A stretch of DNA of 23,714 bases from assembly GCA_043803945.1 (NCBI GenBank), contig JAZDJN010000081.1, positions 1 to 23,714 on the forward strand, given 5' to 3'. Positions 6,432-23,714 of this stretch are shown one piece after another. The notes beneath the pieces were generated by a model. It saw only the letters and a list, made by a program, of their open reading frames with translations. It was not told the DNA's origin and searched no databases. The DNA is from a bacterium. GTDB lineage: Bacteria > Bacteroidota > Ignavibacteria > UBA10030. Both the position numbers and the translations under genes were made by a program. Within the stretch, counting starts at the first letter, position 1. Each line of letters begins with the position of its first letter.

Positions 6432-9203
6432 ATGAGGAAAGCAATTTTGCTCTCCTTTCTTCTTGCGTTCTCACTTTATGCTCAGAATAAGGGAAAGATC
6501 GCCGGCTATGTACGAGATGCAAAGACCAAAGAGGGGCTCCCCGGTGTGAATGTGGTACTGAAAGATACGCGTCTCGGAGCCATAACAGATATCGAAGGCG
6601 CATACTTCGTAATAAATATTCCACCCGGAATCTATGAAGTCACTGCCTCTATTATTGGATATCAAAAAGTTACCCAGGAGAATGTGCAGATCAGCAGCGA
6701 CCGGACAACGACGGTGAATTTCTCACTTCAGGAAGCGGCTCTTAATATTGTCAAAGAGGTTGTGGTGGTCGCGGAGCGGCCTGATGTCTCTCCCGAAAAA
6801 ACATCCACGAGCGATATTATTCGCGGCGAGCAAGCTTTGAGTTTACCCGGTACTCGCGATCTGACTGCGGTGATGTCACTCTCTCCTGACATCATCGATG
6901 GCCATTTCCGTGGCGGTCGTGAGGGAGAAGAACTCTATACGCTTGCTGGGATGGGAGTCGTCAACCCGCTCGATAATGCACTTGCAGTGGCACCAATTCT
7001 GAGTGCAGTGGAAGAGATTGAGGTGATCACCAGCGGCTTCAGTGCGAAATATGGAAACGCACAGTCTGGTGTTGTTAATATCTCGCTGAAGGAAGGCAGT
7101 AGAAACAAATGGCAGAGCCGCGCTGAGTTCCGATCGCGTATGCCGGCCTATAAACACTGGGGGGCGAATGTCTGGGATTCAAAAAATAATCCTTACCTCC
7201 AGTTGATGAATTCACCGGAAAAGATGAGATCGAACGAGGATAGCACAAGGCTCTTTCTTGCGAATTTCTTATCTCTTTCAAACTACAAAAACGATACAAC
7301 ACTTGCTTCACGTCTTGCTTATGCCATGTATACGCAGAATCGGCGAAATATCGGCGGGAGCTATAACAATACGTGGGATTATTCTGCGGAGGCAAATGTT
7401 GGCGGACCGCTTTCAAACGATGTCACTCTGTTTCTTGCAGGCCGTTTTGCAAATACCTGGCCTGTCATACCACCTCCGGAACCAGATGTCACCAGACAAT
7501 TGATAGCTAATCTCGCATTTTCCCTTGGCGATGGAATGTCGCTCCGGCTGAGCGGCGCTTTCTCAAATAACGACCGGCATGACTATCGGGCACTGGGATC
7601 GGCAACCAGCCTCGATTATCGCTATTGGATCTGGGACCGGGTGATGGGACTCAATAAGATCTCACAGGACAATTATACGTATGGTCTACGCTATACCTAT
7701 TCACCAACTCCAAACACATTCTATGAAGCCAAAGTCAGCGGACTGATGACAAGGGTACAGGAAGGTTCACCGGTTATTGCTACGGACAGGTTCAGAACGG
7801 ATGATGTTCTCGGCAATGCATTATGGCGTGTGCTCACAGGAGGTGATGGCTACCGGATTGGCTATATGGATTCAGGGACCCGCGACGAGAAGACCTTCAC
7901 CTTCTCAGTCGATGCCTCAATGACAAGCCAGGTAACGCGCTCACATCTGCTATTGGCAGGTATGCAATTTAATTCCTTCAATATCGATGTCAACAATCAG
8001 ACAGGCCGTGCGAATCCGGGTACGGCACACAACGAAATTTACATTGCCAAACCGATTGAGTGGTCTCTCTTCGTACAGGATAAAATGGAATTCCAGGGAA
8101 TGATTGCCAACATCGGACTCCGACTAGATGCCTACAATCAAAAAGTGGGGTATTATAAAAATGTATTCACACCACTTGAGGGTGCAGAGACCGAAAAGAC
8201 TCCAACGATCGGTCGTTTGCAGCCACGGATTGGAATTTCGTTCCCGGTTTCGACGATGACCGTGTTTCATATGAATTACGGATCCTTCCTGCAGCGTCCA
8301 TCGTTCCAATATACCATTGCGAAAAGTGTAAGCTTGACAGGCCGTATCCCTTCGTTAATCGGTAACCCTCAGTTGAAACCTCAGGATACCAAGAGTTATG
8401 ATGTTGGCCTGACACAAGGTTTTGGTAAGGGATTCACGCTCGACATCAGCAGTTATTATAAAGATGTCAGCAATCTGATTGAGCGTGTGTACTTCTATCC
8501 GGCCAAGGGTGCGTTGGAATTCTATGAAACATATATGAACCGTGATTATGCCGATATCAGAGGTTTTCGCATTTCCTTCAATCGACGATCCGGCATTCTC
8601 ACCGGCTCACTGAATTATAATTTCCAGGTTGCAACAGGCAAGAGCAGTACTCCCTTTGATGCTTCACCGATCATTCGTGAGAACACGAGCGCTTCCAGGA
8701 AAACCGATACCCCGGATCCTGAAGATATTCTTCTGGATTTTGATCGAACGCATAATGTGGTGCTGGTGCTTGGCGTCGAGACTCCTGTTGAGTTTGGTCC
8801 GCAAGTCTTTGGCGCTTTTCCGTTTGAACAGTTGAGCGTCTCCTCGAAATCGTTTATCCGAAGTGGCCGTCCCTATACTTCGGACCTCGATTTTGGAGAA
8901 CGCTTCAAGCGCAGAACTCCCTCGGAACAAAACACCGACTTAAAGATTTCGAAGCAGATCAAACACTTTTTCGGTGTCTCGGCAACGTTCTATGCTGAAG
9001 TATTTAACCTGTTTAATAGCAAGATCTATGAATACAATCCCGTTTTTAGAAATCCAATTAATCGAAATAAATTTGAATCTGACCAGGGTCAACTTCCCCT
9101 GTGGGTGAGTGAAGAAAACCAAATCTATACATGGGACATTTCCTATCTCCTTTACGACAATGCTCCACGGTCCATCTGGTTTGGTTTGGTAATAAACTTC
9201 TGA
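6432..9203 (+). CDS. TonB-dependent outer membrane receptor
   Basis: 923 aa. Signal peptide, carboxypeptidase-regulatory-like N-domain (GKIAGYVRDAKT.E.LPGVNV), plug motif (EEIEVITSGFSAKYGNAQSGVVNI), GNPQLKP, EVFNLFN and a C-terminal Phe. SD AGGAGG. Confidence 0.95.
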   Translation: MRKAILLSFLLAFSLYAQNKGKIAGYVRDAKTKEGLPGVNVVLKDTRLGAITDIEGAYFVINIPPGIYEVTASIIGYQKVTQENVQISSDRTTTVNFSLQEAALNIVKEVVVVAERPDVSPEKTSTSDIIRGEQALSLPGTRDLTAVMSLSPDIIDGHFRGGREGEELYTLAGMGVVNPLDNALAVAPILSAVEEIEVITSGFSAKYGNAQSGVVNISLKEGSRNKWQSRAEFRSRMPAYKHWGANVWDSKNNPYLQLMNSPEKMRSNEDSTRLFLANFLSLSNYKNDTTLASRLAYAMYTQNRRNIGGSYNNTWDYSAEANVGGPLSNDVTLFLAGRFANTWPVIPPPEPDVTRQLIANLAFSLGDGMSLRLSGAFSNNDRHDYRALGSATSLDYRYWIWDRVMGLNKISQDNYTYGLRYTYSPTPNTFYEAKVSGLMTRVQEGSPVIATDRFRTDDVLGNALWRVLTGGDGYRIGYMDSGTRDEKTFTFSVDASMTSQVTRSHLLLAGMQFNSFNIDVNNQTGRANPGTAHNEIYIAKPIEWSLFVQDKMEFQGMIANIGLRLDAYNQKVGYYKNVFTPLEGAETEKTPTIGRLQPRIGISFPVSTMTVFHMNYGSFLQRPSFQYTIAKSVSLTGRIPSLIGNPQLKPQDTKSYDVGLTQGFGKGFTLDISSYYKDVSNLIERVYFYPAKGALEFYETYMNRDYADIRGFRISFNRRSGILTGSLNYNFQVATGKSSTPFDASPIIRENTSASRKTDTPDPEDILLDFDRTHNVVLVLGVETPVEFGPQVFGAFPFEQLSVSSKSFIRSGRPYTSDLDFGERFKRRTPSEQNTDLKISKQIKHFFGVSATFYAEVFNLFNSKIYEYNPVFRNPINRNKFESDQGQLPLWVSEENQIYTWDISYLLYDNAPRSIWFGLVINF

Positions 9204-9219
9204 GAAGGCGAGAACCACT

Positions 9220-11427
9220 ATGAACAGAATACTTTTGCTCTTCCTTGCTTGTCTCTCCATACCGATGATACTTGTCAGTCAGGAACGGTCGTACGAGATT
9301 CATAAGCGGGGTATGTTGCATCAGACCGTCTTTAACACTGGTGAATTGAGCAGGAATTTTACTCAGGGGAATGCCGGAAACTCGACCTCGGTGCCGCTCT
9401 TCGAATGGCCGCGATCTTCCCGCGTCATCATCGATCAGAAAGAGTACGACGGACAGCATCACTCGTTAGGCGGAGGAATTTGGATCGCAGCTAATGCAGC
9501 CGATACAGCAGGCCGTCTGAAAGCATTATGCGGCGGTGTCGGATCGAGCAGTGCGGAAATCGTGAGCGGCATCTGGAGTTATCCTTTATCGATCAAGAGA
9601 ACTGAAAATTATCCGGTCTTATCCAATGGAGATTTAAATCCGGCATACAATCCTAACGAGGCTGAAGAAATCATTCTCGCCAGATGGGCAACACCGACTG
9701 GCATCACGGTGACACGGACAAGTCGGGCGTGGAGTTATCCCGACTACGATGATTTTATCATCTATGAATATGAATTCGAAAATACCGGCAATCGTAATGC
9801 AAATGAAGCGACGATCGAATCGAATGCAATCCTGACCGACGTGGTCGTTTCATTTGCCTATGGATTTGCACCCTCGATGTTCGGGCATATGCGAACCTAT
9901 AATCGATGGTACTATACGGAGATGGAGGCAAATGCACGCGCACGCTTCGATTTCAAACGCTGGCTCGATTATAATACAAGCAATAATGGTCTGCCTGAAC
10001 CAAATAGCGGATATTTTACACTCTGGGGTTCAACCAAGAAATATGGCGGTAGCCTCCTGTCACCACAAGCGGTTGGGTTCTCAGTCCTCTATTTCGATAA
10101 TGATCTGGTCGCCCGCAAGAGTGAGACCTCAGCCTATGCACCAGCCTCCGATTCATTAGCATGGGATAAAGTTACTGGAAAACTTCGTCAGCCCTGGGCA
10201 AATTATACTCAGACCTCCAATATGCGATCGTCGAAGAATCTCCCGATTCTCGATATCGCGAACGGAAGAGCTCCCGAAACCGGCTCCTCCAAAGTGACAA
10301 TTTACAATCCAGGACAGAACCGATTTGATGGCAGTGCCTATTGGATCGGCCGGGGCAGCGCCTACAAGCGTGTGAATGGTGTTGGGCGCATCCTGATGTT
10401 TGGTCCATACACAATTCCCAAAGGCCAGAAGGTCAGATTTTCAATTGCAGAAGTTGCCGGCTATGGGGCAGCGACATTGCAGCAAACGCGAAGCGGCATT
10501 ATTAAGGATCATGATCTCATCACTGATCGGTACAGTGCACCTCCGAATTGGTTTATAGACACGACCTTTACAGGAGCTGGCTCGAATCAGGTTGGGAGCA
10601 CCTATCTGGCAACTTATCCTTTGCCGGATTATGTGAATTCCAAAGTCGTGACTGTTCGTGATGTTACGGATCGGGCAATTCAGGCATACAACGGGGGACC
10701 GGTGATTATGTACGACACGCTCCAATATCAGGCTGAGCTCGCGCCGAGCAAAGGTATCTATAAATTTCCTGCACCTTTTCCAGCACCAGGACTGACATTC
10801 TCCAATACGTCACTAGCCGAGAATGTGATTTCCTGGGGTCCACAGATCGAATCATTCAGCCATCCGATGCTTAGCGGAACGTTCAGCCACTACGAAGTGC
10901 TCAAAGCCGATCATCCGCTGGGTCCTTGGTCGAAACTGGATAGTGTCGGAAAATCCGATCCGAGATATTTCTCGAACGGGATTTATAAAGTGAAAGATCG
11001 GACCACAAAAGTTGGTGCGACATATTACTATACGGTTATCTCGGTGGATAACAAAGGGAACAAGAGTGGGCAGACGAACATGGCTTTCTTTGAAACGCAA
11101 ATTGGCGGAACAGATCAGCTTGAGAAGGTCTATGTTGTGCCGAATCCATTTATCGGGCAATCGGGATTCGGCGGTGCAACCTCTGGTGGAGTCTCTGATA
11201 CCCGGATGAAGATCGGATTCTATAATCTTCCAAAGGTTTGTACGATACGCGTCTACTCTTTCTCCGGTCAACTAGTAACGACCATTCAGCATGAGAGCGG
11301 TTCGTATTCAACTGAATACCTCCAGGTAACAAGAAATAACCAGGTACTCGCCAGCGGGGTGTATTTCTATGTTGTCCAAACCCCGGAAGGGAATACGACA
11401 AACGGAAAATTTGTGGTTATCCATTAA
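9220..11427 (+). CDS. Secreted protein with FN3-like region and T9SS-type C-terminal sorting-like domain
   Basis: 735 aa with signal peptide. YYYTVISVDNKGNKS is FN3-like. The C-terminal VYVVPNPF...FYNLP..CTIRVYSFSGQLV...LASGVYFYVV resembles a T9SS type A sorting/FlgD-Ig domain. Confidence 0.75.
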   Translation: MNRILLLFLACLSIPMILVSQERSYEIHKRGMLHQTVFNTGELSRNFTQGNAGNSTSVPLFEWPRSSRVIIDQKEYDGQHHSLGGGIWIAANAADTAGRLKALCGGVGSSSAEIVSGIWSYPLSIKRTENYPVLSNGDLNPAYNPNEAEEIILARWATPTGITVTRTSRAWSYPDYDDFIIYEYEFENTGNRNANEATIESNAILTDVVVSFAYGFAPSMFGHMRTYNRWYYTEMEANARARFDFKRWLDYNTSNNGLPEPNSGYFTLWGSTKKYGGSLLSPQAVGFSVLYFDNDLVARKSETSAYAPASDSLAWDKVTGKLRQPWANYTQTSNMRSSKNLPILDIANGRAPETGSSKVTIYNPGQNRFDGSAYWIGRGSAYKRVNGVGRILMFGPYTIPKGQKVRFSIAEVAGYGAATLQQTRSGIIKDHDLITDRYSAPPNWFIDTTFTGAGSNQVGSTYLATYPLPDYVNSKVVTVRDVTDRAIQAYNGGPVIMYDTLQYQAELAPSKGIYKFPAPFPAPGLTFSNTSLAENVISWGPQIESFSHPMLSGTFSHYEVLKADHPLGPWSKLDSVGKSDPRYFSNGIYKVKDRTTKVGATYYYTVISVDNKGNKSGQTNMAFFETQIGGTDQLEKVYVVPNPFIGQSGFGGATSGGVSDTRMKIGFYNLPKVCTIRVYSFSGQLVTTIQHESGSYSTEYLQVTRNNQVLASGVYFYVVQTPEGNTTNGKFVVIH

Positions 11428-11443
11428 GCAAAGAGAGTGTCTT

Positions 11444-12493
11444 ATGAAACGGAAGCAAATACTCTTACTCACGTTGGCTGCAACTCTCTTCATGGGAAGC
11501 GCAATGCGGCTTCACGCTCAAAAGGTTGCGACAACCTCATTTCAATTTCTGAAAGTTATGCCGACAGCCCGCGCTACGGCAATGGGAGAAGCGTACAGCA
11601 CGCTTGCAACGGGAGCCGATGCACTCTTCTGGAATCCTGCCGGACTTGCATTGGCGAGTGAGCAACAGATCTCAACAACGCTGACATTGTGGCTCTTTGA
11701 TACCAAACTTGGTGCAATTTCCTATGCGCTGCCACTGGGAGACCTTGGAGCGATTGGTCTGCAGCTCCAATATGTCGACTATGGCAAGATCGAAGAAACT
11801 TCAGTGGATCGCCTGGGATTTGAAGGATCGGGCACAAACCTTCGCTACAATCCCGGGCTCACCGGGAATACTTTTTCTCCGGTCGCGTATATTGTGGGGC
11901 TGACCTATGCAAAAGCACTAACAGATAAATTTTCAACAGGCCTCTCGGTAAAATATATTTCAGAATCACTCTGGGGCAATCGGACTGTCTCGGTACTAAG
12001 TCCGGAAGGGCAGATGGTTGACTATAAGACCTATGCGAAAGCGCTGCTCTTCGATTACGGCCTCCGTTATAACACGGGATTTCGTTCGGTGCAGATAGGA
12101 ATCTCGGTCCAGAATCTTGGTGCCGCGATCCAATATGGGACCGACGGATACCCTGCACCGTTGTTATTCCGCGTCGGTACGTCTGCTGACTTGTTGGGGC
12201 CGAATGCGCTGCTCTATCCCTCCGATGAACATCGCTTGACGTTCGCCTATGATCTTTTTCAACCGAATGATTATGCACAGCAAATGCATTTTGGTCTCGA
12301 GTATGCGTTTAACAATACCTTTGCACTTCGCAGTGGGTATAAATGGAATTATGACTCAGATGGTTTGACCCTGGGTGCAGGAATCAATATCGAGTTGGGA
12401 GGATACGACTTAGCATTTGATTACAGCTATGGAACGATGGGAGAATTTCTTGGCCAGGTTCACCGAATAACATTGGGAGCGAAGATTCGATGA
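11444..12493 (+). CDS. PorV/PorQ (UPF0164) family outer membrane beta-barrel
   Basis: Likely start is ATG 11444 (MKRKQILLL.. signal peptide), not 11369. FQFLK..P.ARA.AMGEA......ADALFWNPAGLA motif, and a C-terminal FDYSY......G.VHRITLG. Confidence 0.85.
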   Translation: MKRKQILLLTLAATLFMGSAMRLHAQKVATTSFQFLKVMPTARATAMGEAYSTLATGADALFWNPAGLALASEQQISTTLTLWLFDTKLGAISYALPLGDLGAIGLQLQYVDYGKIEETSVDRLGFEGSGTNLRYNPGLTGNTFSPVAYIVGLTYAKALTDKFSTGLSVKYISESLWGNRTVSVLSPEGQMVDYKTYAKALLFDYGLRYNTGFRSVQIGISVQNLGAAIQYGTDGYPAPLLFRVGTSADLLGPNALLYPSDEHRLTFAYDLFQPNDYAQQMHFGLEYAFNNTFALRSGYKWNYDSDGLTLGAGINIELGGYDLAFDYSYGTMGEFLGQVHRITLGAKIR

Positions 12494-14025
12494 AAACCAT
12501 TCGACGGTACACTGCAATAGGAATCCTGATAAATCTGATTGTTCTTTCATCTGCAACGATAGTGGCGCAAGGTGTTGCAGTTCCACTCATGCTCCAGGGG
12601 CTCGATCACACTGTTCCACAAGGTGCCCGCTCTCGTGCGATGGGCGGCACCGCATACGGTATGTCAGGCGATGTGGCAGCAATGTTTTCCAATCCAGCCG
12701 GATTGATGGGATTACAGGCAAACGAATTTCACATCGGTGCAACCGATCTTCTCCTGAATTCAACGATGACTCAAGAGTGGTATGTGAACGATTATCTTGA
12801 CTACTTTTCACTGATCGTTGAGAACAAGCCTGAATATGGTCCGATCTTCGATGCTTTGAATGATAGGTTTCGATCAGACTCGTTAACGAAATTTAGGAAC
12901 GGCAGGTTGTTTAATGTCAAACCCTATGATGATCTTCAAACAAATTGGCAAAAGAGCAAGAGTCGATTTTTACCATCCTTGCTCGCGGTAGCGTTTCCAA
13001 TAGAATTTAAAAAACAAATGATCGTTCTGGGTCTTGGGTACACCGAGATGATTAATCTCGATTATTATTTCCAGAACAATACGGCAATGGATCCATACCT
13101 TGGACAATTCCGACCTGCCCCGGTTCCGGTATTTAAAAATGTCAATGACTCATTGAAAGTTCGTTTATTCAGAAACAGCGCCCAGCGTGAAGGCTCGATC
13201 TATGGAGTGACACCGGGTATCGCCTTCAGTCCTTTGAATGGCATAAACGTGGGAATCACTTATACCTCGCTCTCCGGTATAACCGATGATCTTGAAGAGC
13301 AATATGACCGCTCGATTATCGTGATCAGAACGGTAAAAGGGAGGGTCGATATCGATCCGGTTTGTCAGCTCGATCCCGGCAACTATTCCAGGATCAGCAA
13401 AGGCAAGTCGCACTTTTCCGGATCGATGATCAATGTTGGGGTGAATTACAAAGATGAATATTTTAGCATTGGAGGTTCATTTAAGCCTCCCTATACCATT
13501 ACTCGAAGCTGGGACAGAAGAATTACCACAACGGCGCTACCCGGCGCTTCGATTTTGGATAGTGAAATTATCGAAGGGGGAGAAGAATCGATAAAGTTCC
13601 CATTCAGCTTCGGCATCGGACTTGCGATTTTCGCGAATGAAAAAGTGACAGTCGCATTGGATTATGAAAGCCGTAACCTCACCCGGACAGTTCTCTCAGT
13701 GCGGGATTCCACCGAACTCAATCCCTGGCTGAACGGGAGCCGGTATCGCTTTGGTGTTGAGTACCGTCCGTTGTCTGGGCTGGCGCTTCGATGCGGGTAT
13801 CGTGAAGAGGCGGAAGTCTTTGCCCGAACGGGTGCAGCGATTATGACCCTTCCTGAACGCTCGAAGATTTTTACCGGTGGCCTCGGATTTCAAATTTCCT
13901 TTGTTACCATCGATCTCGCGTATGAATTCAGGAGGCTGATCTATTTCGATTCATGGGAATCGAACACGAACTTTATCACTGATAACAAGCATTTCCTGAT
14001 GATTGAAACTTCGTTCCGATTCTAA
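12490..14025 (+). CDS. FadL/OmpP1-like outer membrane beta-barrel protein
   Basis: Signal peptide, GARSRAMGG......D..AMFSNPAGL hatch motif, amphipathic strands (RFGVEY, LRCGY, IDLAYEF), terminal FRF. ATGA overlap with the upstream gene. Confidence 0.75.
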   Translation: MKTIRRYTAIGILINLIVLSSATIVAQGVAVPLMLQGLDHTVPQGARSRAMGGTAYGMSGDVAAMFSNPAGLMGLQANEFHIGATDLLLNSTMTQEWYVNDYLDYFSLIVENKPEYGPIFDALNDRFRSDSLTKFRNGRLFNVKPYDDLQTNWQKSKSRFLPSLLAVAFPIEFKKQMIVLGLGYTEMINLDYYFQNNTAMDPYLGQFRPAPVPVFKNVNDSLKVRLFRNSAQREGSIYGVTPGIAFSPLNGINVGITYTSLSGITDDLEEQYDRSIIVIRTVKGRVDIDPVCQLDPGNYSRISKGKSHFSGSMINVGVNYKDEYFSIGGSFKPPYTITRSWDRRITTTALPGASILDSEIIEGGEESIKFPFSFGIGLAIFANEKVTVALDYESRNLTRTVLSVRDSTELNPWLNGSRYRFGVEYRPLSGLALRCGYREEAEVFARTGAAIMTLPERSKIFTGGLGFQISFVTIDLAYEFRRLIYFDSWESNTNFITDNKHFLMIETSFRF

Positions 14026-14057
14026 TTTGAATTCAATCGGGAGGTACGTGAAGATCG

Positions 14058-15461
14058 ATGATTATGCATAACGGAATAATTTTGTTGAGTTTATTAATCT
14101 GTTTGCAGAGTTCCTTCGCTCAGACAGTCATCAGGGTTTCTTCTGTTGTGGAATTGAAGCAGGCGCTTGCAGCCATTAAGCCATCTCAAACGATTCTCAT
14201 TGCAGATGGGAAGTACAACCTCGAAGGTGTTGTAAAGGTATCAATGGGAGGAACACACAATGCTCCGGTTTTGATAAGGGCAGAGCATAGCACAAAGGTT
14301 CAGTTCATCGGCGATTCCCGGTTTCTCTTTGAAGCTTTGGAGCATTTAACGATTGAAGGATTCGAGTTCTCATCGACCATTGGTCCGGCACTAGAACTCC
14401 GCTCATGCAATAACGTTCGTATTACCCGATGCCTGTTTCACCTTCGTGAAGCAACGCGGGGATCGTGGGTAGTGGTGACAGGAATTCCCAATGATTCCAT
14501 TCGTCTCAGTCACCACAACCGGATCGATCATAATATCTTTGAGAAGAAATCCCAGCTTGGGAATTTTATTACTATCGAAGGTACGATATGCTCTAAGCCG
14601 CAGGTATCGCAATATGACCGCATCGACCACAACCTCTTTGCCGATATTGGACCGCGAGTGGAAAATGTGCTCGAAGCTATCCGTGTAGGCTCCTCGGAAT
14701 ATTCTCTCTCGAGTGGGTTCACAGTCATCGAGGAAAACCTCTTTGAGCGGTGTGATGGCGATCCGGAATATATTTCTATCAAATCCAGCGACGACACGAT
14801 CCGCCATAATACGTTTCGTGAATGTTTTGGCTCGCTCTCCTTACGTCATGGGAACCGAAATACTGTCGATGGCAATTATGTCCTGGGGAATGGCAGAACC
14901 GGAACATTTATCGACAGCACGGGGAAAACGTGGACGCTCGGAACAGGCGGAGTTCGTTTCTACGGCACAGGGATGCGTATAATTAATAACTATTTCGAGG
15001 GATTGACCGGTAAACGATGGGATGCAACATTTGCAATCACCAGCGGTAACGCGGAGTACGGCGACGGTCAACCGCTAACCAAACATTTCCGGATCCAGAA
15101 TGCGACGATTGCCTTCAATACGCTTGTGAATAATACGAGCAATTTCGAAATCGGATACGACGGCGAAGGTTTTCAAGGCAACTGGTGGCGGCTTCCACCG
15201 ATGGGATTGCATATGCAGAATAATATCATAGTTAGCAAACAGGACACACTGATAAAGATATTTGCCTCGCCGGTGAACTCCACATGGGAAAAGAATATTG
15301 TCTGGGCGACAGGCGGAGCAGTAGTCTCGCATTCTCCCATTGATGGAGTACAAGTGACGGATCCGAAGTTGGTGAACGATAGGGGAATCTGGCACTTGCA
15401 AGACCGGCCTGTACGTTTTCGTCCGCTTGAGAGAAAAGACGTTGGGCCGGAGGCGAAGTAA
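14058..15461 (+). CDS. Polysaccharide lyase family 6 (chondroitinase B/alginate lyase-like beta-helix)
   Basis: Signal peptide, NRIDHN repeats, EAIRVGSS, CDGDPEYISIKS (catalytic Lys position), GSLSLRHG (catalytic Arg position), GGVR, IINNYFEGL. Confidence 0.9.
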   Translation: MIMHNGIILLSLLICLQSSFAQTVIRVSSVVELKQALAAIKPSQTILIADGKYNLEGVVKVSMGGTHNAPVLIRAEHSTKVQFIGDSRFLFEALEHLTIEGFEFSSTIGPALELRSCNNVRITRCLFHLREATRGSWVVVTGIPNDSIRLSHHNRIDHNIFEKKSQLGNFITIEGTICSKPQVSQYDRIDHNLFADIGPRVENVLEAIRVGSSEYSLSSGFTVIEENLFERCDGDPEYISIKSSDDTIRHNTFRECFGSLSLRHGNRNTVDGNYVLGNGRTGTFIDSTGKTWTLGTGGVRFYGTGMRIINNYFEGLTGKRWDATFAITSGNAEYGDGQPLTKHFRIQNATIAFNTLVNNTSNFEIGYDGEGFQGNWWRLPPMGLHMQNNIIVSKQDTLIKIFASPVNSTWEKNIVWATGGAVVSHSPIDGVQVTDPKLVNDRGIWHLQDRPVRFRPLERKDVGPEAK

Positions 15462-15793: not shown

Positions 15794-15921
15794 CTGACTC
15801 ATCCCCCTCGCCTACGCTGCCGCTTCCACCTCCGTTCTTCGAACTTCGGTGGACAAGTCGGCGAGCAGGCACACCCCCTTCTCTAAAACTTAGAGAAGGG
15901 GGATTGAGGGGGTTGAGTCAG
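15794..15921. repeat. Nested palindromic (REP/REPIN-like) element
   Basis: Outer IR CTGACTCATCCCCCTC (15794-15809) / GAGGGGGTTGAGTCAG (15906-15921), 15/16 match. Perfect 13-bp stem 15874-15886/15890-15902. Inserted hairpins CTCGCC..GGCGAG+CAGGC and TCCACC..GGTGGA+CAAGT. Confidence 0.8.
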
Positions 15922-15994: not shown

Positions 15995-16268
15995 TCTTCC
16001 AGCCATATCTTATATACCGTGTTGAAGCATACCGGAGGGAAGGATTTGTGTGCTTCCGAAGGAGCAACTCCTGCATACGAAAAAGATAATTCCAAGGAAT
16101 CGAAAAGCTTAGGATTCGCGATTGCGATGAAGGAGGTTTTCATACTTATAAGGAATAATCGCAATTCGTTTTTACACACTGTTATGCGCCATTTGCGCTT
16201 TCGATTCAGTTCACGCTCAGAAACTTTATACGAAGTATGCTCCGCAACAACCAACTTTGGAGGAATGT

Positions 16269-16646
16269 ATGGCTAAGAAGAAAGTATTCATCAGCTTCGA
16301 CTTCGACAACGACAAGACATTGAAGGAATTTATTATCGGGCAGGCCAAAAACGATGACTCGCCGTTTGAAGTCAGCGATCATTCGATCAAAGAAGCCGCT
16401 CCCGAAAAGGATTGGCTTGACCGAGCCAAGGTTGCAATTGGACGAGCTGACGTGTTCATAATTATGCTCGGCTCGAAAACTAAGAATGCCAGCGGGGTAC
16501 TCAAAGAACTCAAGGTTGCCAATGAAAAAGGTAAGGATAAGTTCCAGATCATCGGATACCGCGACGGCTCTGAAGATTGGGCTGTCCCCGGTGGAGGACG
16601 TGTATATCGATGGAATTGGTATAACCTGAAGAAACTACTCTCGTGA
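16269..16646 (+). CDS. TIR-like domain protein (MTH538/DUF1863, ThsB-like)
   Basis: Start ATG 16269 after GGAGG. Motifs KKVFISFDFDND, D.SIKE, I..ADVFIIMLG..T..A.GVLKE (Glu at the TIR catalytic position), Y.WNW.NL. Confidence 0.8.
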   Translation: MAKKKVFISFDFDNDKTLKEFIIGQAKNDDSPFEVSDHSIKEAAPEKDWLDRAKVAIGRADVFIIMLGSKTKNASGVLKELKVANEKGKDKFQIIGYRDGSEDWAVPGGGRVYRWNWYNLKKLLS

Positions 16647-16650
16647 GGGT

Positions 16651-17091
16651 ATGATGTCTAAGGTCAAGATAGATTCTCCGGGTGTTCAGAGTTATCTGGA
16701 GATTCTCCAAGGCGTGATCAATCGAATGGCATCCAACAGCTCGGGTTGTAAGACGTGGTGCATAGCTTTGGTCTCTGCCATTGTCGTCATCATAGCGGAT
16801 AAGGGGAAGCCGCAATTTGTGTGGATTTCGCTTTTCCCCGTTCTTCTTTTCTTGTTTCTTGATGCTTACTACCTGAGTCTAGAAATACGATTCCGTGACC
16901 GGTACAACGACTTCATCAGAAAGTTACACGCAGACGAAGCATCAATTGAAGATTTGTTCATTGTTACACCGGGCAAAGGATTTAGAAATATCACCAAGTC
17001 GAGCATCAAGGCGCTATTCTCGCTATCTGTCTGGCCATTCTATGGTCTGCTGATTGCCATGATGATTATTATGCGTCTCTGGCTCCTATGA
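16651..17091 (+). CDS. Small 3-TM membrane protein, putative defence effector
   Basis: YLEILQGVINRMASNS...KTW motif, three hydrophobic segments, LDAYYL.LE..FR..Y. Starts 4 nt after the TIR stop codon. Confidence 0.75.
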   Translation: MMSKVKIDSPGVQSYLEILQGVINRMASNSSGCKTWCIALVSAIVVIIADKGKPQFVWISLFPVLLFLFLDAYYLSLEIRFRDRYNDFIRKLHADEASIEDLFIVTPGKGFRNITKSSIKALFSLSVWPFYGLLIAMMIIMRLWLL

Positions 17092-17195
17092 GTAAAGCTG
17101 ACGAAACTTGACATACATTTGCTCTCCGGCTTGCGATGTTGTAAATTAAGGTCAGTTCAGAATTGATCTCAGACTCTTACAATCATTGGAGTAGT

Positions 17196-18098
17196 ATGAA
17201 GGTATTTGAAAAGAACGGTCACAAGATAATTTGGGGTGAAGCGATTGAGGTTTTTGAAACCATCAAAGATGGTTCGGTCGACCTCATTTTCGCTGATCCC
17301 CCTTACAACATCGGGAAAAAATTTGCCGACGTTCCTGATCGCTGGGAATCGGATAGTTCGTATTTGAATTGGTGTTATAAGTGGCTGCACATGTGTATCA
17401 AGAAGCTGAGAAGTAATGGGACGATGTACGTAATGACGGCCACCCAGAACATGCCACACTTCGACCTTTTCCTGAGAGATAAACTTACAATCCTCTCTCG
17501 AATTGTCTGGTATTACGACAGTTCCAGTGTTCAGGCACGCAAGTATTTTGGTTCTCTATATGAGCCGATACTTCATTGCGTCAGGGACGAGAATGATTAC
17601 ACATTCAATTCGAAGGACATTCTGGTAGAGGCGAAGACTGGCGCTGTTCGTAAGCTGATTGACTATAGAAAACCCGTCCCGACAGTTTATAACTCGAAGA
17701 AGGTTCCCGGAAACGTCTGGCATCTTCCAAGGGTAAGATACCGTATGGATGAATACGAAAACCATCCAACGCAGAAGCCAATTGCATTGCTGGAAAGGAT
17801 TATCAAGGCAAGCAGCAACGAGGGCGATTTAGTAGTTGATCCGTTCTCTGGCTCTTTCACAACTTCGTACGTTGCCAAGCAACTCAAAAGAAAGTCAATT
17901 GGAATCGAGATCAGCGAGGACTACGTCAAGATTGGTTTGCGCCGTTTACAGATCGCTACAAAGTTTAACGGTGAACCTCTACGTAGAGAGCGAAAGACAT
18001 ATGAGCCACCGGAAAACGAAAACCAAACCGCCCTATCCCTATTTGAAAAGAAAGTCAAATGGAACACGAGTTCACCAAAACGATCAAAAGTATCTTAG
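17196..18098 (+). CDS. Beta-class N6-adenine DNA methyltransferase (YhdJ/M.AvaIII/M.NsiI-like)
   Basis: Motif IV DPPYN precedes HPTQKP and motif I DPFSGSFTT (beta order). AKTGAVRKLIDYRK and RVRYRMDEYENHPTQKP are YhdJ-like. Likely start ATG 17196 after GGAG. Confidence 0.9.
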   Translation: MKVFEKNGHKIIWGEAIEVFETIKDGSVDLIFADPPYNIGKKFADVPDRWESDSSYLNWCYKWLHMCIKKLRSNGTMYVMTATQNMPHFDLFLRDKLTILSRIVWYYDSSSVQARKYFGSLYEPILHCVRDENDYTFNSKDILVEAKTGAVRKLIDYRKPVPTVYNSKKVPGNVWHLPRVRYRMDEYENHPTQKPIALLERIIKASSNEGDLVVDPFSGSFTTSYVAKQLKRKSIGIEISEDYVKIGLRRLQIATKFNGEPLRRERKTYEPPENENQTALSLFEKKVKWNTSSPKRSKVS

Positions 18099-19204
18099 AG
18101 AAGAACTTTCCAAAGTCATCGCAGACGATCTTTTCAAAGAGCGAGCTTATTCAGTATCTCAATATCAAGAGCAAGTCGGCAAACAAAGGTTCAAAGTCCA
18201 GGGGCAGTTTCGCCAATCTCTATGCCATCTATGTTTTGGTCGAAGATTACATTTCAAAAGGCTTCCACAAGGCAGGCAATTACAAGAAGTCCGAGGGTGC
18301 CGTCTTTTCAACGCTTTTCGACAGACAAAGGGAGCTACCTTTTGGGCAGAAACTGCAGAACCACGCACTTAACCACCGAATGAATGAGGAGTTCAAGAAG
18401 TTTTTCCCTAATTGCGATTACATTCCCATCCTTCGAGATCCTAAAACCAACCGCTACTGGTTCAACCAAAATCTTCTCAGACTCACAGTCCGCTCCAAGA
18501 AGCAAGACCTTTCTCAGTCTATGATAGAAATTATCGACGCATACGTCGAGGCAAAGAGAAGCGCATTTGACCGATTTATCAAGTTCTGTGAGGGTGCAGA
18601 AAAACTCAAAGAGCCGAAGCTTGTAGAATTCATCACGGGTTTGATTGAGCCCACAGTTGACGCCCGCATTTTTGAGATCGTAAGCTACAGTATTCTCAAG
18701 TACTACTATCACAATCAGAAACTCTTCTGGGGTTTTGACCCTGATGACCTCCAAGAAGATAATCTCAAACTCTACAAAACTGGGCGCACCAATGCCAATG
18801 ATGGCGGCATTGATTTCGTTATGAAGCCATTAGGGCGATTTTTTCAGGTCACTGAGACTGTCGATGTGAAGAAGTACTTCTTAGACATCGACAAGATTGA
18901 GAAATTCCCGATAACCTTTGTTGTCAAATCAACCGATTCGTCTGATACTATCAGACAGAAGATACAACAACAGGCAGAAAGACAATATTCAATCCAAGCT
19001 ATTGTCTCTCGATATATGTCTTGCATTGAAGAAATTATCAACATTCCCGAATTGCTTCTCAAGTTCAAATCGGTGATTGATGAAGGTTACTTGACCGACA
19101 TTCTTACAGAGATCATCAAACAGAGCAAGGTCGAATTCAATTACGACGAAGATGACTACGATGTGAGCGAATATGCGAACGGCAAAGAGTCCGAAGAAGA
19201 TTGA
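18059..19204 (+). CDS. Type II restriction endonuclease (AvaIII/NsiI-like)
   Basis: Overlaps the MTase by 40 nt. QYLNIK.KSANKGSKSRGSFAN.YAIYVLVEDY and the nuclease-like core NANDGGIDFVMKPLGRFFQVTE resemble, from recall, REases paired with YhdJ-like MTases. Confidence 0.78.
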   Translation: MEHEFTKTIKSILEKNFPKSSQTIFSKSELIQYLNIKSKSANKGSKSRGSFANLYAIYVLVEDYISKGFHKAGNYKKSEGAVFSTLFDRQRELPFGQKLQNHALNHRMNEEFKKFFPNCDYIPILRDPKTNRYWFNQNLLRLTVRSKKQDLSQSMIEIIDAYVEAKRSAFDRFIKFCEGAEKLKEPKLVEFITGLIEPTVDARIFEIVSYSILKYYYHNQKLFWGFDPDDLQEDNLKLYKTGRTNANDGGIDFVMKPLGRFFQVTETVDVKKYFLDIDKIEKFPITFVVKSTDSSDTIRQKIQQQAERQYSIQAIVSRYMSCIEEIINIPELLLKFKSVIDEGYLTDILTEIIKQSKVEFNYDEDDYDVSEYANGKESEED

Positions 19205-19218
19205 CAGGCGCAAACGGC

Positions 19219-19349
19219 ACATAACACGCCGCACCACGTCGCTCCGTCATTTGGAGTAGATTAAAGTCGTCGCTCAATGGCACGCCTTCGCAGGAAATTG
19301 ATTTATTATAGCTCGGCGTGCCACTGCGTGGTGCGGCGAAATGTTAGGC
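19219..19349 (+). other. attC-like recombination site 1 (131 bp)
   Basis: R'' ACATAAC 19219-19225. Perfect 12-bp IR CGCCGCACCACG (19227-19238)/CGTGGTGCGGCG (19327-19338). Inner IR TGGCACGCC/GGCGTGCCA. R' GTTAGGC 19343-19349. Confidence 0.82.
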
Positions 19350-19387
19350 GGCATGGCCGCCCTAAGGATACAGATAACGGGATGTGT

Positions 19388-19666
19388 TTATTCAAAGAGT
19401 TGTACTCTAATCCTCATGCCTAGTGCATTTGCATATTTTTCAAGAGTTGAGAGTCGTATGTCCTCAGCATGGTTTTCAATTCGGGATATTGCCGATTTTT
19501 TTGTCCGAAGTTTCTTCGCAATCGCTTCTTGTGTTACTCCAGCTCGTTCTCGAGCTTCCCTCAACATCACACTGAACTCAAACGCTTCATATCCTGATTC
19601 GAAATTCTGTGCAAACTTTGAACTACGTGCTTTTCGTCTTTCGATATATCGCTCAACATCACTCAT
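19388..19666 (-). CDS. HigA-like XRE/HTH antitoxin
   Basis: [31 protein letters not shown]...[21 protein letters not shown]-coupled to the upstream toxin. Confidence 0.9.
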
Positions 19667-20016
19667 AGCTTTCCCTTCCTTTGCATGTATTCAGTTCGTC
19701 GTTGTTGCGCTAGCTCTATCTCTTGTAAAGGTATTTTCTTTTGCTTCTTCACAAATCCGCTCGTCAAGATTAGTAACACCGGTCCATCAAAGAATCCAAG
19801 TAATCGATAATGTTTACCTCCAGACTGAACGCGTATTTCCCAGAGTTGATCGGTTCCGACAAGTTTTTTCAAGTATTGCTCTGGTACTCTATCAAGTCGC
19901 TCAACAAGTCGTAGTACCCATGCTACTTTCTGAGCGTGCTGGTCCGACAAGCTGTCGAGGGATTCTTCTACTGGCTTCGAGTTCGATGGTGTTCTATAAA
20001 ATTCTATTTCTCGCAC
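19663..20016 (-). CDS. RelE/ParE-superfamily toxin (Gp49-like, HigB-type)
   Basis: IEFYRT....PVEE.L..L, LWEIRV......YR, GFVKK..K.P..EIELA..R motifs. Toxin-before-antitoxin gene order. Confidence 0.9.
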
Positions 20017-20021
20017 ATCCT

Positions 20022-20050
20022 AAGTTAACATATATGTGAACTATATGCAA
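20022..20050 (-). promoter_or_regulatory. TA promoter with palindromic autoregulatory operator
   Basis: Minus strand TTGCAT (20050-20045), 17 bp, TAACTT (20027-20022). Near-perfect palindrome GTTAACATA-TATGTGAAC (20024-20041) overlaps the spacer and -10. Confidence 0.7.
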
Positions 20051-20091
20051 GCAGCCTTTATTCAATCTTTTGAGTGCGGGCGGCCACGACC

Positions 20092-20378
20092 GCCTAACAA
20101 TCGTGCTTGCGACCCGCCTCCGAAAAAAACACTACGGCGGGCAGGCGCTCGCCTAGGAAGATAGCGGGCGGGCACTCGTTTGGTTATGTCGAATAGGAAT
20201 CTAAATTAATGTATGTCAATTGTGCTTCCGCCAAAAAGATAGCGGACAGTTGCTCCATTTCGTGCCGCCACACAATTGAGCTTTCATAGCGGCGGCACTC
20301 AACGGCCCCGATAAAAAACATCCCGATACAATGCATCGGGACAAGTTCGGGGCAGGCGCAAGCACTCACACGTTATGC
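20092..20378 (+). other. attC-like site 2 (287 bp, expanded by nested hairpins)
   Basis: R'' GCCTAAC 20092-20098, IR GTGCTTGCG (20103-20111)/CGCAAGCAC (20357-20365), R' GTTATGC 20372-20378. Confidence 0.75.
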
Positions 20379-20430
20379 GCCACGCAGCTTTTGTAGGAAA
20401 CGATATGCTTGGTACTTTGGAATAAGGAAT

Positions 20431-20847
20431 ATGTCAACACACCAATCATTTTCCTTCGTACAATTTTTGATTTTACTCTTATTTCTCTCAAGCGGGTGCG
20501 TTTCGATAGAAATTATCAATCCTGATCCAGGTAGATTCGATTCGACAAAAGACATTGTAGTATCAACCCATGATGGCCGTAACATTCTCTTTCGTGGTGG
20601 CAATTATCAGATCATCTATCAACTCAATAATAAATTAATCAAAGGTTATGGGAGATTGATAGCTGCGGGAAATCTATCTGACCGAGAATTAATATTTAAT
20701 GATACTATTCCGTTTGACCAAATCGATTCAATTCAGGTACGCCATTATTCGATATTTCACTATACCGGTGCAATTATATTTGGGATAGCAGCACTTTGTG
20801 TTATCATACTAGCAATGATGTTCGGCGGCCGTGGTATTGGCGATTGA
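20431..20847 (+). CDS. Putative lipoprotein with C-terminal TM segment (cassette gene, copy 1)
   Basis: SD AAGGA, lipobox-like LSSG|C, hydrophobic C-terminal helix, AT-rich. Confidence 0.75.
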   Translation: MSTHQSFSFVQFLILLLFLSSGCVSIEIINPDPGRFDSTKDIVVSTHDGRNILFRGGNYQIIYQLNNKLIKGYGRLIAAGNLSDRELIFNDTIPFDQIDSIQVRHYSIFHYTGAIIFGIAALCVIILAMMFGGRGIGD

Positions 20848-20889
20848 TTATATTAATCATTATCAATGCAAATCATGCTGCTGCGCGGC

Positions 20890-21203
20890 GCCAAACAATC
20901 GTGCTTGCGACCCGCCTACGCCAAAATCGCTTCCACCTTCACTTCGTTTCAGTGGACAAGTCGGCGGACAAACCCGCCCAAGAAGATGGCGGACAAACGC
21001 TCGTTTGGTTATGTCGAACAGGAATCTAATGAAAGGTATGTCAGTTGTGCTTCCGCCAAACAGACGGCGGACAGGCGCTCCATTTCGTGCCGCCACACAA
21101 ATTGATTTTTCGTAGTGGCGGCACTCAACGGCCCCGATAAATAACATCCCGATACAATGCATCGGGACAAGTTCGGGGCAAGCGCAAGCACTCACTGCTA
21201 GGC
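20890..21203 (+). other. attC-like site 3 (314 bp, degenerate cores)
   Basis: Homologous to site 2, with the same GTGCTTGCG/CGCAAGCAC arms. R'' GCCAAAC and R' GCTAGGC deviate from consensus. Confidence 0.65.
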
Positions 21204-21255
21204 GGCACGCAGCTTTTGTAGGAAACGATATGCTTGGTACTTTGGAATAAGGAAT

Positions 21256-21672
21256 ATGTTAACACACCAATCATTTTCCTTCGTACAATTTTTGCTTTTA
21301 CTCTTATTTCTCTCAAGCGGGTGCGTTTCGATAGAAATTATCAATCCTGATCCAGGTAGATTCGATTCGACAAAAGACATTGTAGTATCAACCCATGATG
21401 GTCGTAACATTCTCTTTCGTGGTGGTAATTATCAGATCATCTATCAACTCAATAATAAATTAATCAAAGGTTATGGGAGATTGATAGCTGCGGGAAATCT
21501 ATCTGACCGAGAATTAATATTTAATGATACTATTCCGTTTGACCAAATCGATTCAATTCATGTACGCCATTATTCGATATTTCACTATACCGGTGCAATT
21601 ATATTTGGGATAGCAGCACTTTGTGTTATCATACTAGCAATGATGTTCGGCGGCCGTGGTATTGGCGGTTGA
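21256..21672 (+). CDS. Putative lipoprotein with C-terminal TM segment (cassette gene, copy 2)
   Basis: 134/138 aa identical to 20431-20847. Confidence 0.75.
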   Translation: MLTHQSFSFVQFLLLLLFLSSGCVSIEIINPDPGRFDSTKDIVVSTHDGRNILFRGGNYQIIYQLNNKLIKGYGRLIAAGNLSDRELIFNDTIPFDQIDSIHVRHYSIFHYTGAIIFGIAALCVIILAMMFGGRGIGG

Positions 21673-21866
21673 TTATATTAATCATTATCAATGCAAATCA
21701 TGCTGCTGCGCAGCGCCTAACAATCGCAACTATGGTGTTCGCTCTTTAATGTGTTAGCTGCAAGTTTCCCCTGGACTTTCTCATCATATTCCTCTCACAT
21801 ACAGTGCCACACAAGATTACAAAATATTGTGTAGATTAGCGTAATTAGCGTTAACCCGATGAATCG

Positions 21867-22538
21867 ATGAAAACAGAATTGATAGAGAAGCAAGTTGTCT
21901 CAAAAAAGCGTGTGGCTGACCATGGCGAGGTGTTGACCGGCAAGCGCGAGGTTAATGCCATGCTCGACCTTGTGAAGCAGGAAACGGAGCGGATCGAGTC
22001 GCGGTTTCTTGAACCGGCTTGCGGGGACGGGAATTTCCTCACAGAAATTCTGGAACGAAAACTGCGCGTCGTTGAAAGCCGCTACGGGAAGTCCCAACTG
22101 GAATACGAACGCTACGCCATACTTGCAGTATCTTCCATCTACGGCATTGATATTCTGGAAGACAACGTTCAGCAGTGCCGGCACAGGCTTTTCGGGGTTT
22201 TCGAGTTGAACTACACGCGGCTTTTCAAGAACAATGCCAAGAATAGGTGTCGCGAGGCCGTCCGGTTCATCCTTGAACGCAATATCATCTGGGGCGACGC
22301 CCTGACGCTCAAGACAGTGGGCGAGGAACCGGAATACATTGTTTTTTCAGAATGGTCGCCGGTCAATGGAAGTATGCTTAAGCGGCGCGACTTCACGTTC
22401 CACGGTTTGCTGTCACACGAAGGCATGAAGGAACTGCCGCTCTTCTCCGATCTCGGCGAAGACGTATTCATTCCCACACCGAAGAAGGAATATCGCCCGA
22501 CCCACTTCCTGGAGGTTGCCGATGCAGACAAGCGGTAG
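21867..22538 (+). CDS. SAM-dependent DNA methyltransferase-like subunit (motif I, no obvious motif IV)
   Basis: [42 protein letters not shown]. Overlaps the downstream Eco57I-like gene. Confidence 0.8.
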
Positions 22539-23714
22539 TTACAACCCGGACGTCCTGACCTGCCTGGCAAACTTGAGCAGTGACGAAGTGTTCAGCCCGC
22601 CGCAATTGGTCAATCGCGTTCTGGATTTACTGCCTCATGAAATTTGGAGCGACAAGAACGCCCGGTTTCTCGATCCGTTCTGCAAGTCCGGTGTTTTTTT
22701 ACGCGAGATTGCCAAGCGCCTCGACAAAGGCCTGGAAAAGATAATCCCGAACAAGCAGAAGCGGATCAACCACATCTTTAAGAACCAGTTGTTCGGCATT
22801 GCCATTACGGAATTGACCTCTTTGCTTTCCCGCCGGTCGGTGTATTGCTCGAAGACCGCCAATGGGAAATATTCCGTCTGCGAAACCTTCGACGACTTAC
22901 AGGGTAATATCCGTTTCAAGCGGATCGAGCACACATGGGAAGAAGGACGTTGCGTTTTCTGCGGGGCAAACCAAGAGGCCTATGACCGAAGCAAAGAACT
23001 GGAAACCCACGCCTATCAATTTATCCATACTGAAAAGCCAGAGGAGATATTCAAGATGAAATTCGATGTCATTGTCGGCAATCCGCCGTACCAACTGAGC
23101 GATGGGGGAGCGAAGGCAAGTGCTTCACCTATTTATCACTTATTTGTTCAGCAAGCGAAAAAGCTTAATCCTCGGTTTCTGACCATGATTATTCCTTCAC
23201 GCTGGTTCTCCGGCGGGAAAGGGCTGGATAACTTCAGAAATGAGATGCTTAATGACAATCGTTTGCGACAAATTATCGATTATCCTGATTCGACCGAGTG
23301 TTTTCCTGGCGTTGACCTGAGCGGCGGAGTCTGTTACTTCAAATGGGACAGAGACAACCGGGGCGATTGTGAGATCAATACACATATCGAAGGAAGAACA
23401 TCGACGATGACTCGCCCTCTACACGAAAAGGACATAGACACGTTTATCCGATACAACGAAGCAGTCTCTATCCTTCACAAGATAATCACAAAAAAGGAAA
23501 ATGAAAGTAGCTTCAGTGAAATAGTTAGCGCGAGAAAGCCTTTCGGATTTTCGACTGACTTTAATGATTTCAAACAGAAAGAATTTCCTCACAGTGTAAA
23601 GTTAATTGGTTACAATAAAACCGGCTTTGTTAAGCAATCTCAAATACTACAAAACAGTTCCTGGGTAAATAAACACAAAGTCTATATTTCTATGGCCTAC
23701 GGGGAGAGAATAGC
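22522..23714 (+). CDS. Eco57I-like restriction-modification methylase domain protein (partial, runs off the window)
   Basis: Absent from the ORF track because it has no stop in the window. Manual translation from ATG 22522 (SD GGAGG): [27 protein letters not shown]...[12 protein letters not shown]...[13 protein letters not shown]...[14 protein letters not shown]. Confidence 0.88.

Follow-up and report, generated by a model that had tools for sequence, protein, structure and literature searches.

Hairpin sites that resemble attC and show none of its extrahelical bases may belong to ordinary integrons, or they may belong to a cassette system with a recombinase of its own. In integrons, the I2 insertion of the integrase IntI together with the extrahelical bases is held to be the innovation that allowed a Xer-like enzyme to recombine folded single strands (excerpts of PMC4792948 and PMC7790495). 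The question is raised by contig JAZDJN010000081.1 of the Ignavibacteria genome GCA_043803945.1 (UBA10030), which was analysed over its whole length of 23,714 nucleotides and is called the window below; it is one (C81, 23.7 kb) of 118 contigs in an assembly of 5.54 Mb. A preliminary description, made from the sequence alone, had noticed three attC-like sites within 19208..21203 and proposed that they may be substrates of a different tyrosine recombinase of the FCB group; type IX secretion genes on the contig (PorV, Por_Secre_tail; Pfam) agree with the group assumed there. Based on sequence comparisons, we estimate a probability of about three in four that the array of the window is part of a distinct integron-like system working without the I2 insertion.

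The inner arms of the three sites are perfect inverted repeats of 12 bp (site 1) and 9 bp (sites 2 and 3) with no extrahelical base, and the unpaired spacers (left and right) measure 1 and 4 nt in site 1, 4 and 6 nt in site 2 and 4 and 5 nt in site 3. Both the coordinates of the arms and the longer right spacer were thus reproduced as first described (Table 1), while the latter, presented as a peculiarity, turned out to be a matter of degree. The same pairs of spacer lengths, 1/4, 4/5 or 4/6 nt, characterize the sites of this family across the lineage. For their analysis 41 genomes of the family and order were used, including this one (G000; relatives bear labels from G004 to G040), and 40 sites from this genome and six relatives were aligned in one register. 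It consists of TAAC, one base, the 12-nt L'' block, a variable region that contains a conserved inner hairpin (present also in site 1), L', 4–6 bases and GTTA; TAAC and GTTA show no or almost no variation. In this alignment 91.3% of cells pair, versus at most 44% if the partner is slid by 1–3 columns; the L box is paired in 89%, 12 of its 14 pairs change on both sides, and the covariation score was reached by none of 500 shuffles. Taken together, the pairing, the compensatory changes and the result of shuffling mean that pairing is selected. Bottom strands were folded, as the preliminary description had suggested: in the minimum-free-energy structures the 3' arm of 32 of the 40 sites is free of single-base bulges, and position 16 is bulged in none.

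A covariance model built from the same sites, also proposed there, recognized site 1 with 110.4 bits (E 2.8e-22) and site 2 with 31.1 bits (E 3.4e-5; a full-length match with two large insertions), both above chance, and site 3 in part, since only its inner hairpin block was matched (21076–21128, 18.2 bits, E 0.021). A profile derived from 21 sites matched this genome 51 times, on 17 contigs, mostly as same-strand runs and often at contig ends.

No tyrosine recombinase was found among the proteins of the window contig in the list of open reading frames (ORFs) or by Pfam. Contig C5 of the same genome encodes an intact Xer-like recombinase of 338 residues, which heads nine sites of the window's family on the same strand, all cassette ORFs of this array being co-oriented. 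Among proteins of solved structure, VchIntIA (2a3v, E 1.1e-41) matches it best; the C5 recombinase has 26 residues where VchIntIA (IntI4) has 68, and XerA aligns with it colinearly without a gap. The IntI family model TIGR02249 matches it in two pieces (120.4 and 96.7 bits; cut-off 265 bits), skipping model positions 180–241. In the alignment the insertion block is missing from all eight orthologues and present in all 11 canonical IntI of the lineage. A search for linked recombinases, advised in the preliminary description, yielded an enzyme that heads an array on its own strand and does not have the insertion of IntI. Matches to it at E 1e-40 or better were registered in 18 of the 41 genomes, a count to which G000 itself and a few matches that are partial or paralogous contribute; full-length orthologues are 48–55% identical. 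All seven loci of relatives with downstream context carry arrays of the window's site family behind the gene, which together with C5 makes eight of eight. An attI-like junction (TAG/TTA, the slash marking its position) lies about 70 nt after the stop codon of the C5 recombinase, and in seven of the eight loci such a junction is placed 25–100 nt 3' of this codon. In the tree both IntI (100/99) and the insertion-less clade (81/81) were recovered, and gene remnants of the latter head arrays in G014 and G031. A second recombinase (approximately 43% identical) directly follows the insertion-less integrase in contig C2 of G040 (L072, about 1600–2400); its counterpart in G000 is a frameshifted gene (C65:24414–25291) away from any array.

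Canonical IntI occurs in the same lineage, exceeding the family cut-off in 13 of the 41 genomes. In G000 no gene passed this cut-off, and its canonical IntI is represented by pieces. Two N-termini lie at the ends of C45 (13792–14082) and C70 (58758–59048), and these contigs share only the last ~450 nt, so at least two canonical integron heads must be present and collapsed in the assembly. The single assembled C-terminal half, with the IntI patch motif, is found on the 2.3-kb contig C41, where a 294-nt insert, in frame, separates the HxxRH box from the helix that follows it (plus coordinates 1706–2007, minus strand; L021 about 1203–1504). The insert has 15-bp inverted ends, encodes a 94-residue GIY-YIG protein (Pfam 4.9e-15), and is single-copy at the DNA level in the assembly; either a very small mobile element or an insert removed by splicing could explain it.

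At the 12 canonical IntI loci examined, profile search detected no site of the window's family. This empty result could be read as absence of arrays at canonical IntI, which had to be rejected, since a repeat search revealed a separate site family there. Its motif matches beside IntI number 11 in G016, two in G018 and one each in G004, G006, G008 and on C41 of G000. Of 15 extracted sites of this canonical family, 12 have folds in which single bases bulge out, G at position 16 and T at position 23, six pairs apart; these are the positions and the spacing given for attC in the available part of PMC5027507. In G018 and on C41 of G000 the canonical IntI also reads toward its cassettes. Thus, the same genomes offer a matched contrast: the insertion-bearing enzyme stands with bulged sites and the insertion-less one with bulge-free sites. 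The preliminary description had allowed for the case that its sites are ordinary attC in a genome with canonical IntI; the integrase is indeed present, with canonical attC of its own, while the sites of the window are of another family. The existence of an insertion-less clade, its linkage to arrays in eight of eight loci and the separate site family of canonical IntI support the proposal of a distinct integron-like system in which another tyrosine recombinase may act on the window's sites.

The ends of each cassette had been described as complementary over about 17–20 nt. For cassette 2 this was confirmed (19343–19362 and 20078–20098 pair at 9 + 8 bases on either side of an internal loop of 3 by 4 nt), and for 40 cassettes 20 nt after GTTA pair with 20 nt before their own TAAC, that is beyond the core, at a median of 14.5 positions, 24 cassettes having at least 14. 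Two flanks of a single site, taken as a control, give a median of 7 of 20 (3 of 39 with at least 14), and random pairs of ends a mean of 7.1 of 20 (1.8% with at least 14). The difference between own ends and own flanks implies that the pairing partner switches at the conserved right-hand core, as exchange between G and TT predicts. The first ~16 nt of a cassette after GTTA pair with ~16 nt before its own TAAC, except for an invariant non-pair at position +7, so that the full outer stem forms only once the cassette ends meet. In four arrays from two phyla (this genome, an Ignavibacteriota genome, Desulfitobacterium and Saccharibacillus) position +7 pairs in none of 29 cassettes. Top strands have A facing C there in 23 of them (bottom strands T facing G), and the other six have different non-pairs, most with a one-base length difference. 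The joined form of 27 sites has a mean folding energy of −39.6 kcal/mol for the bottom strand versus −36.8 for the top strand, the bottom strand being more stable in 26 of them; the corresponding means of the array form are −29.1 and −28.0 kcal/mol, i.e. joining adds about 10 kcal/mol of stability. Pairing beyond the 7-bp core, emphasized in the preliminary description as special, is longer here, though a shorter version is also seen in the canonical cassettes of the lineage: in the canonical array of G016 four of seven neighbouring pairs match over 8–10 contiguous nt after GTTA, with no non-pair at +7 (two pairs in this count being unusable because of one misplaced site end).

Signs of movement were registered in a relative, G040, where an 848-nt cassette with its site occupies three positions in two arrays (99.3% and 99.9% identity) among differing neighbours, the shared block stopping at the right end of the site. 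In an Ignavibacteriota array (L122) three copies of a cassette of 198 nt, which is below the length of a normal gene, are interleaved with others (12528–12726, 12849–13047 and 13982–14180). A search for public sequencing runs containing the window's array, in which excised circles or deletions might be seen, listed none.

These data bear on the idea that the repeats are extragenic palindromes of the REP/BIME type or structured RNAs having nothing to do with site-specific recombination. Their mosaic and modular composition, their dispersal over 17 contigs and the covariation, which would suit RNA just as well, could be explained in this way. Yet the Rfam scan of the window gave no match at E up to 1, complementarity changes its partner exactly where cassette exchange would require it, the sites are strictly co-oriented in arrays that begin at a recombinase gene, and an identical unit of cassette and site was found in three places. 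REP/BIME repeats, in contrast, occur in either orientation and obey no cassette-end logic, whereas the flanks of the variant sites pair cassette by cassette. We consider this explanation highly improbable.

Several observations weigh against a distinct system. The Xer-like enzyme without the insertion is, in our opinion, the likely recombinase of the window's site family, but this assignment rests on synteny. In the tree the insertion-less clade falls into a polytomy with IntI and Xer, which does not separate loss of I2 from its never having been gained. The covariation is equally compatible with folding of DNA or RNA, and the crossover that we infer at site 1, between G19343 and T19344, has no exact bond that can be placed within the invariant core. 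The window array itself, which includes two damaged sites, lies on a contig without a recombinase. This genome and many relatives also possess canonical IntI, and co-occurrence over the 41 genomes does not discriminate between the two candidate enzymes. Sites of the window's family accompany canonical IntI, intact or fragmentary, and no intact insertion-less gene in G014 (9 sites), G018 (12), G017 (8) and G016 (2); in G032 (21), G031 (5) and G015 (5) they are accompanied by neither. Finally, the canonical-site motif occurs once each inside two of ten loci headed by the insertion-less gene, and contig C114 mixes both kinds of sites, which makes cross-use possible.

Some of these facts would be expected if the window's sites were an aberrant attC family recombined in trans by canonical, I2-bearing IntI, the Xer-like neighbour being a passenger or having another role. 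Such a case might be argued from the presence of canonical IntI, whole or in fragments, in G000 and above the cut-off in 13 of 41 genomes, from its being the only one of the two enzymes detected in the site-bearing genomes G014, G018 and G016, from the occasional mixing and from the TAAC...GTTA core common to both families. Deletion of extrahelical bases, moreover, left bottom-strand recombination of some attC sites unlowered, according to excerpts of PMC5027507. Nevertheless, three genomes without canonical IntI, one of which is complete, contain arrays (of 12, 3 and at least 9 sites); none of the 12 canonical loci carries this family, having its own instead; the 294-nt insert disrupts the sole C-terminal half of canonical IntI assembled in G000; and the attI-like junction directly follows the insertion-less gene. 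Service in trans therefore appears improbable, and the Xer-like enzyme of C5 remains the preferred candidate.

If this enzyme recombines the sites of the window, the reaction might proceed as follows. The recombinase would bind the folded bottom strand as two arms of ~10–12 bp, one being the ~10-bp outer stem up to +7 and the other the inner stem of 9–12 bp, with a bulged central region between them situated almost exclusively on the AAC-bearing strand. Cleavage would occur in AAC, as with IntI on attC; one strand would be exchanged with an attI-like junction or another site, and the product would be resolved by replication, as in integrons. The choice of strand could be dictated by the one-sided bulge and by position +7 (T-G on the bottom strand, A-C on the top) rather than by extrahelical bases. 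Since the full outer stem is available only in an excised cassette, insertion of free cassettes would be favoured over excision from the array.

The array of the window extends beyond the range first described, in which the sites were placed correctly: it comprises four cassettes from 16181 to 21855, with cassette 1 on the left and a fourth site on the right (Table 1).

Table 1. Sites, cassettes and cassette genes of the window array (16181–21855)
Feature	Position	Strand	Location	Details
Cassette 1	16181..19343	+		runs to G of its own site 1; start at 16181 complementary (17/22 nt) to left flank of site 1
ThsB-like TIR protein	16257-16646		cassette 1	PADLOC ThsB, 24 bits
PDC-M50A-like protein	16651-17091		cassette 1	PADLOC PDC-M50A, 107 bits
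Type II methyltransferase	17163-18098		cassette 1	PADLOC MTase_II, 429 bits
Type II restriction enzyme	18059-19204		cassette 1	PADLOC REase_II, 527 bits
Site 1	19219..19349	+	cassette 1	131 nt; R'' 19219-19225, L'' 19227-19238, L' 19327-19338, R' 19343-19349
Cassette 2	19344..20372	+		toxin-antitoxin pair and its own site 2
HTH antitoxin	19388-19666	-	cassette 2	Pfam HTH_31/HTH_3
Gp49/HigB-like toxin	19663-20016	-	cassette 2	Pfam PF05973 (9.6e-19)
Site 2	20092..20378	+	cassette 2	287 nt; R'' 20092-20098, L'' 20103-20111, L' 20357-20365, R' 20372-20378
Cassette 3	20373..21197	+		138-residue ORF (20431-20847) and site 3; ends complementary
Site 3	20890..21203	+	cassette 3	314 nt; R'' 20890-20896 (reads AAAC), L'' 20901-20909, L' 21183-21191, R' 21197-21203
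Cassette 4	21198..21855	+		duplicate 138-residue ORF (21256-21672) and degenerate site 4
Site 4, degenerate	21715-21855	+	cassette 4	covariance model 14 bits, E 0.17

The preservation of these sites is uneven. In the right core of site 3 (21197–21203) GTT is replaced by GCT, a detail absent from the preliminary description, and site 4 is degenerate, so the array is probably partly frozen. The same GCT core preceded by CACT (21192–21203 in the window) was found in G000 at C35:519, C83:1879, C15:34254 and C99:10920; sites of this kind may be dead ends locking adjacent cassettes together. Sites 2 and 3 are long because their variable regions contain extra hairpin modules, and those of site 2 are common to sites on C15 and C99 and to a few other loci. 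The modules, small G+C-rich hairpins of the CCGCC...GGCGG type with a nested CCCCGA/TCCCGAT hairpin, lie inside sites 2/3 at 20114–20175, 20225–20258 and 20307–20358. Similar ones are present upstream of the array (15800–15870) and on contigs C25, C51 and C101; they look like a separate miniature-repeat family that invaded the sites. Cassettes 3 and 4 form an 825-bp tandem duplicate (20374–22023), in which the ORF parts are 98% identical versus 85–94% for the site parts, i.e. the sites diverged faster than the gene.

An alternative is that the window array is a dead relic of the variant system whose sites no longer move. Its hairpins would then be no more than terminators or spacers separating defence from toxin-antitoxin genes. 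Apart from the lesions of sites 3 and 4 and the uptake of hairpin modules by sites 2 and 3, such an explanation is favoured by the 23.7-kb contig having no recombinase and by cassette 1 not being preceded by a site, none being recognizable upstream of 16181. At the same time site 1 remains close to consensus (110 bits), site 2 retains both cores and a perfect L stem, the ends of the cassettes still pair, and an intact recombinase gene is available elsewhere in the genome. We consider a dead array rather unlikely, though less so than the other alternatives.

The four defence-type genes of cassette 1 (16257–19204) may represent one cassette or two fused ones, the two pairs being 70 nt apart with no site detected between them. 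For the 138-residue ORF of cassette 3 Pfam gave only a weak hint (Pallilysin, E 0.002, under the cut-off). To the right of the array, in the region 21867–23712, an Eco57I/MmeI-type restriction-modification gene is apparently split into overlapping ORFs (21867–22538 and 22516 to the contig end), by a frameshift or as two genes. To the left, an outer-membrane and type IX secretion cluster (6432–14025; CarboxypepD_reg receptor-like, Por_Secre_tail, PorV-like and FadL-like proteins) is followed by a chondroitinase-B-like lyase (14058–15461).

Distribution of the variant system was also assessed outside the lineage. In metagenomes the recombinase family is abundant: of 8000 proteins scored, 6501 reached E 1e-30 or better, most being named XerD or site-specific integrase. 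Eighty genome loci with homologues of 42–67% identity (909 kb in total) were scanned for sites. Four further FCB metagenome genomes among them score with the site model and show the same linkage. A stringent structure-only scan (TAAC...GTTA, a perfect stem of at least 8 bp, right spacer longer by 1–4 nt) gave 44 matches in 19 loci, all on the strand of the recombinase and 43 downstream of it, versus none on the opposite strand of the 909 kb. The complete genome of Desulfitobacterium sp. Sab5 has 12 sites of about 69–123 nt, most with spacers of 1 and 5 nt; Saccharibacillus kuerlensis has three, a further Ignavibacteriota genome nine or more, and other carriers are labelled Nitrospirae, Thermodesulfobacterium, Clostridia and Spirochaetota. 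Outside the lineage the sites are 58–123 nt long and share the one-sided bulge, unbroken stems of 8–19 bp and the non-pair at +7. Among five carrier genomes searched for IntI, no protein reached the family cut-off in three, namely Desulfitobacterium sp. Sab5, S. kuerlensis and the Ignavibacteriota genome. Thus, a candidate for the recombinase supposed in the preliminary description was found, but its family is not confined to the FCB group, carriers being present in Firmicutes, Nitrospirae and others. One can assume, with somewhat more reason for than against, that there is a lineage of integron-like capture platforms across FCB, Nitrospirae, Spirochaetes, Thermodesulfobacteria and Firmicutes, in which a Xer-like enzyme that never had or shed I2 would read bulge-free hairpins as a pair of perfect arms with an unpaired, one-sided centre between them.

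Full-text literature searches, whose coverage left out most subscription journals, found no description of insertion-less integrons or of the window's site family. For detection tools an integron is defined by two features, the insertion in IntI and a canonical attC model, and the variant clade departs from both. If the proposed reading is true, single-strand cassette recombination requires neither I2 nor extrahelical bases, and the variant lineage represents either the ancestral state of integrons before I2 or a parallel invention. The origin of integrons would then become directly testable, as both systems coexist in the same genomes, each with a matched site and enzyme. A hidden reservoir of cassettes would be added, here with restriction-modification, TIR and toxin-antitoxin genes, and its reach would include Firmicutes, a phylum almost without canonical integrons. 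For the latter the accessible text of the IntegronFinder 2 paper mentions only few orphan clusters, while reporting complete integrons in Ignavibacteriae (PMC9024848).

Recombinases of this kind have partial precedents. XerCD recombine the folded single-stranded attP of CTX-type phages, integrating the phage genome at dif by means of the two Xer proteins of the host. There, as proposed for the window's family, a Xer-type enzyme without I2 acts on a hairpin mimicking a two-arm core site with an unpaired centre, which provides a mechanistic precedent; in contrast to it, a dedicated single recombinase gene heads the cassette arrays described here, and no dif-like site was noticed as far as we looked. 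XerC and XerD are named as the other recombinases known on single- and double-stranded substrates in the available part of PMC5027507. Smyshlyaev et al. (2021) noted that conservation of the insertion is incomplete within their integron-like subgroup (excerpts of PMC8138268). Excerpts of Cury et al. (2016; PMC4889954) report 50 insertion-less tyrosine recombinases co-localised with attC, 21 of them included in a tree, where they were scattered, the four intermediate ones having fewer than three attC each; the study judged these recombinases not to be IntI. Unlike these cases, the recombinases considered here form a single clade with arrays of up to 12 or more sites and a matching non-canonical geometry.

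With canonical integrons (class 1, the Vibrio superintegron) the variant system shares a tyrosine recombinase gene with an adjoining attI-like junction, co-oriented arrays of mostly one- or two-gene cassettes, and typical cassette content (toxin-antitoxin, defence genes, small ORFs). Each cassette likewise ends in an imperfect hairpin site with the AAC/GTT core, exchange presumably taking place at its right-hand copy. It differs from them, first of all, in the recombinase, which has no insertion of ~35–40 residues defining IntI and is co-oriented with its array. In known integrons with the integrase reading toward the cassettes the orientation is the same, but IntI has the insertion and attC are ordinary. 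The variant sites have neither bulged G16 nor T23, their L stem is a perfect duplex of 9–19 bp, and the outer stem extends to ~17–20 bp with a fixed non-pair at +7. Their spacers are 1–4 nt on one arm and 4–6 nt on the other, unlike the 5–6 nt on each arm of textbook attC, both reference ranges used here being those in excerpts of PMC5027507. In length they overlap attC (57–141 nt) in part, with 120–315 nt within the lineage (most 120–160 nt, 131 nt for site 1) and about 69–123 nt in Desulfitobacterium. Functionally and by its layout the system is an integron, while by the insertion of IntI and by the canonical geometry of attC it is not one.

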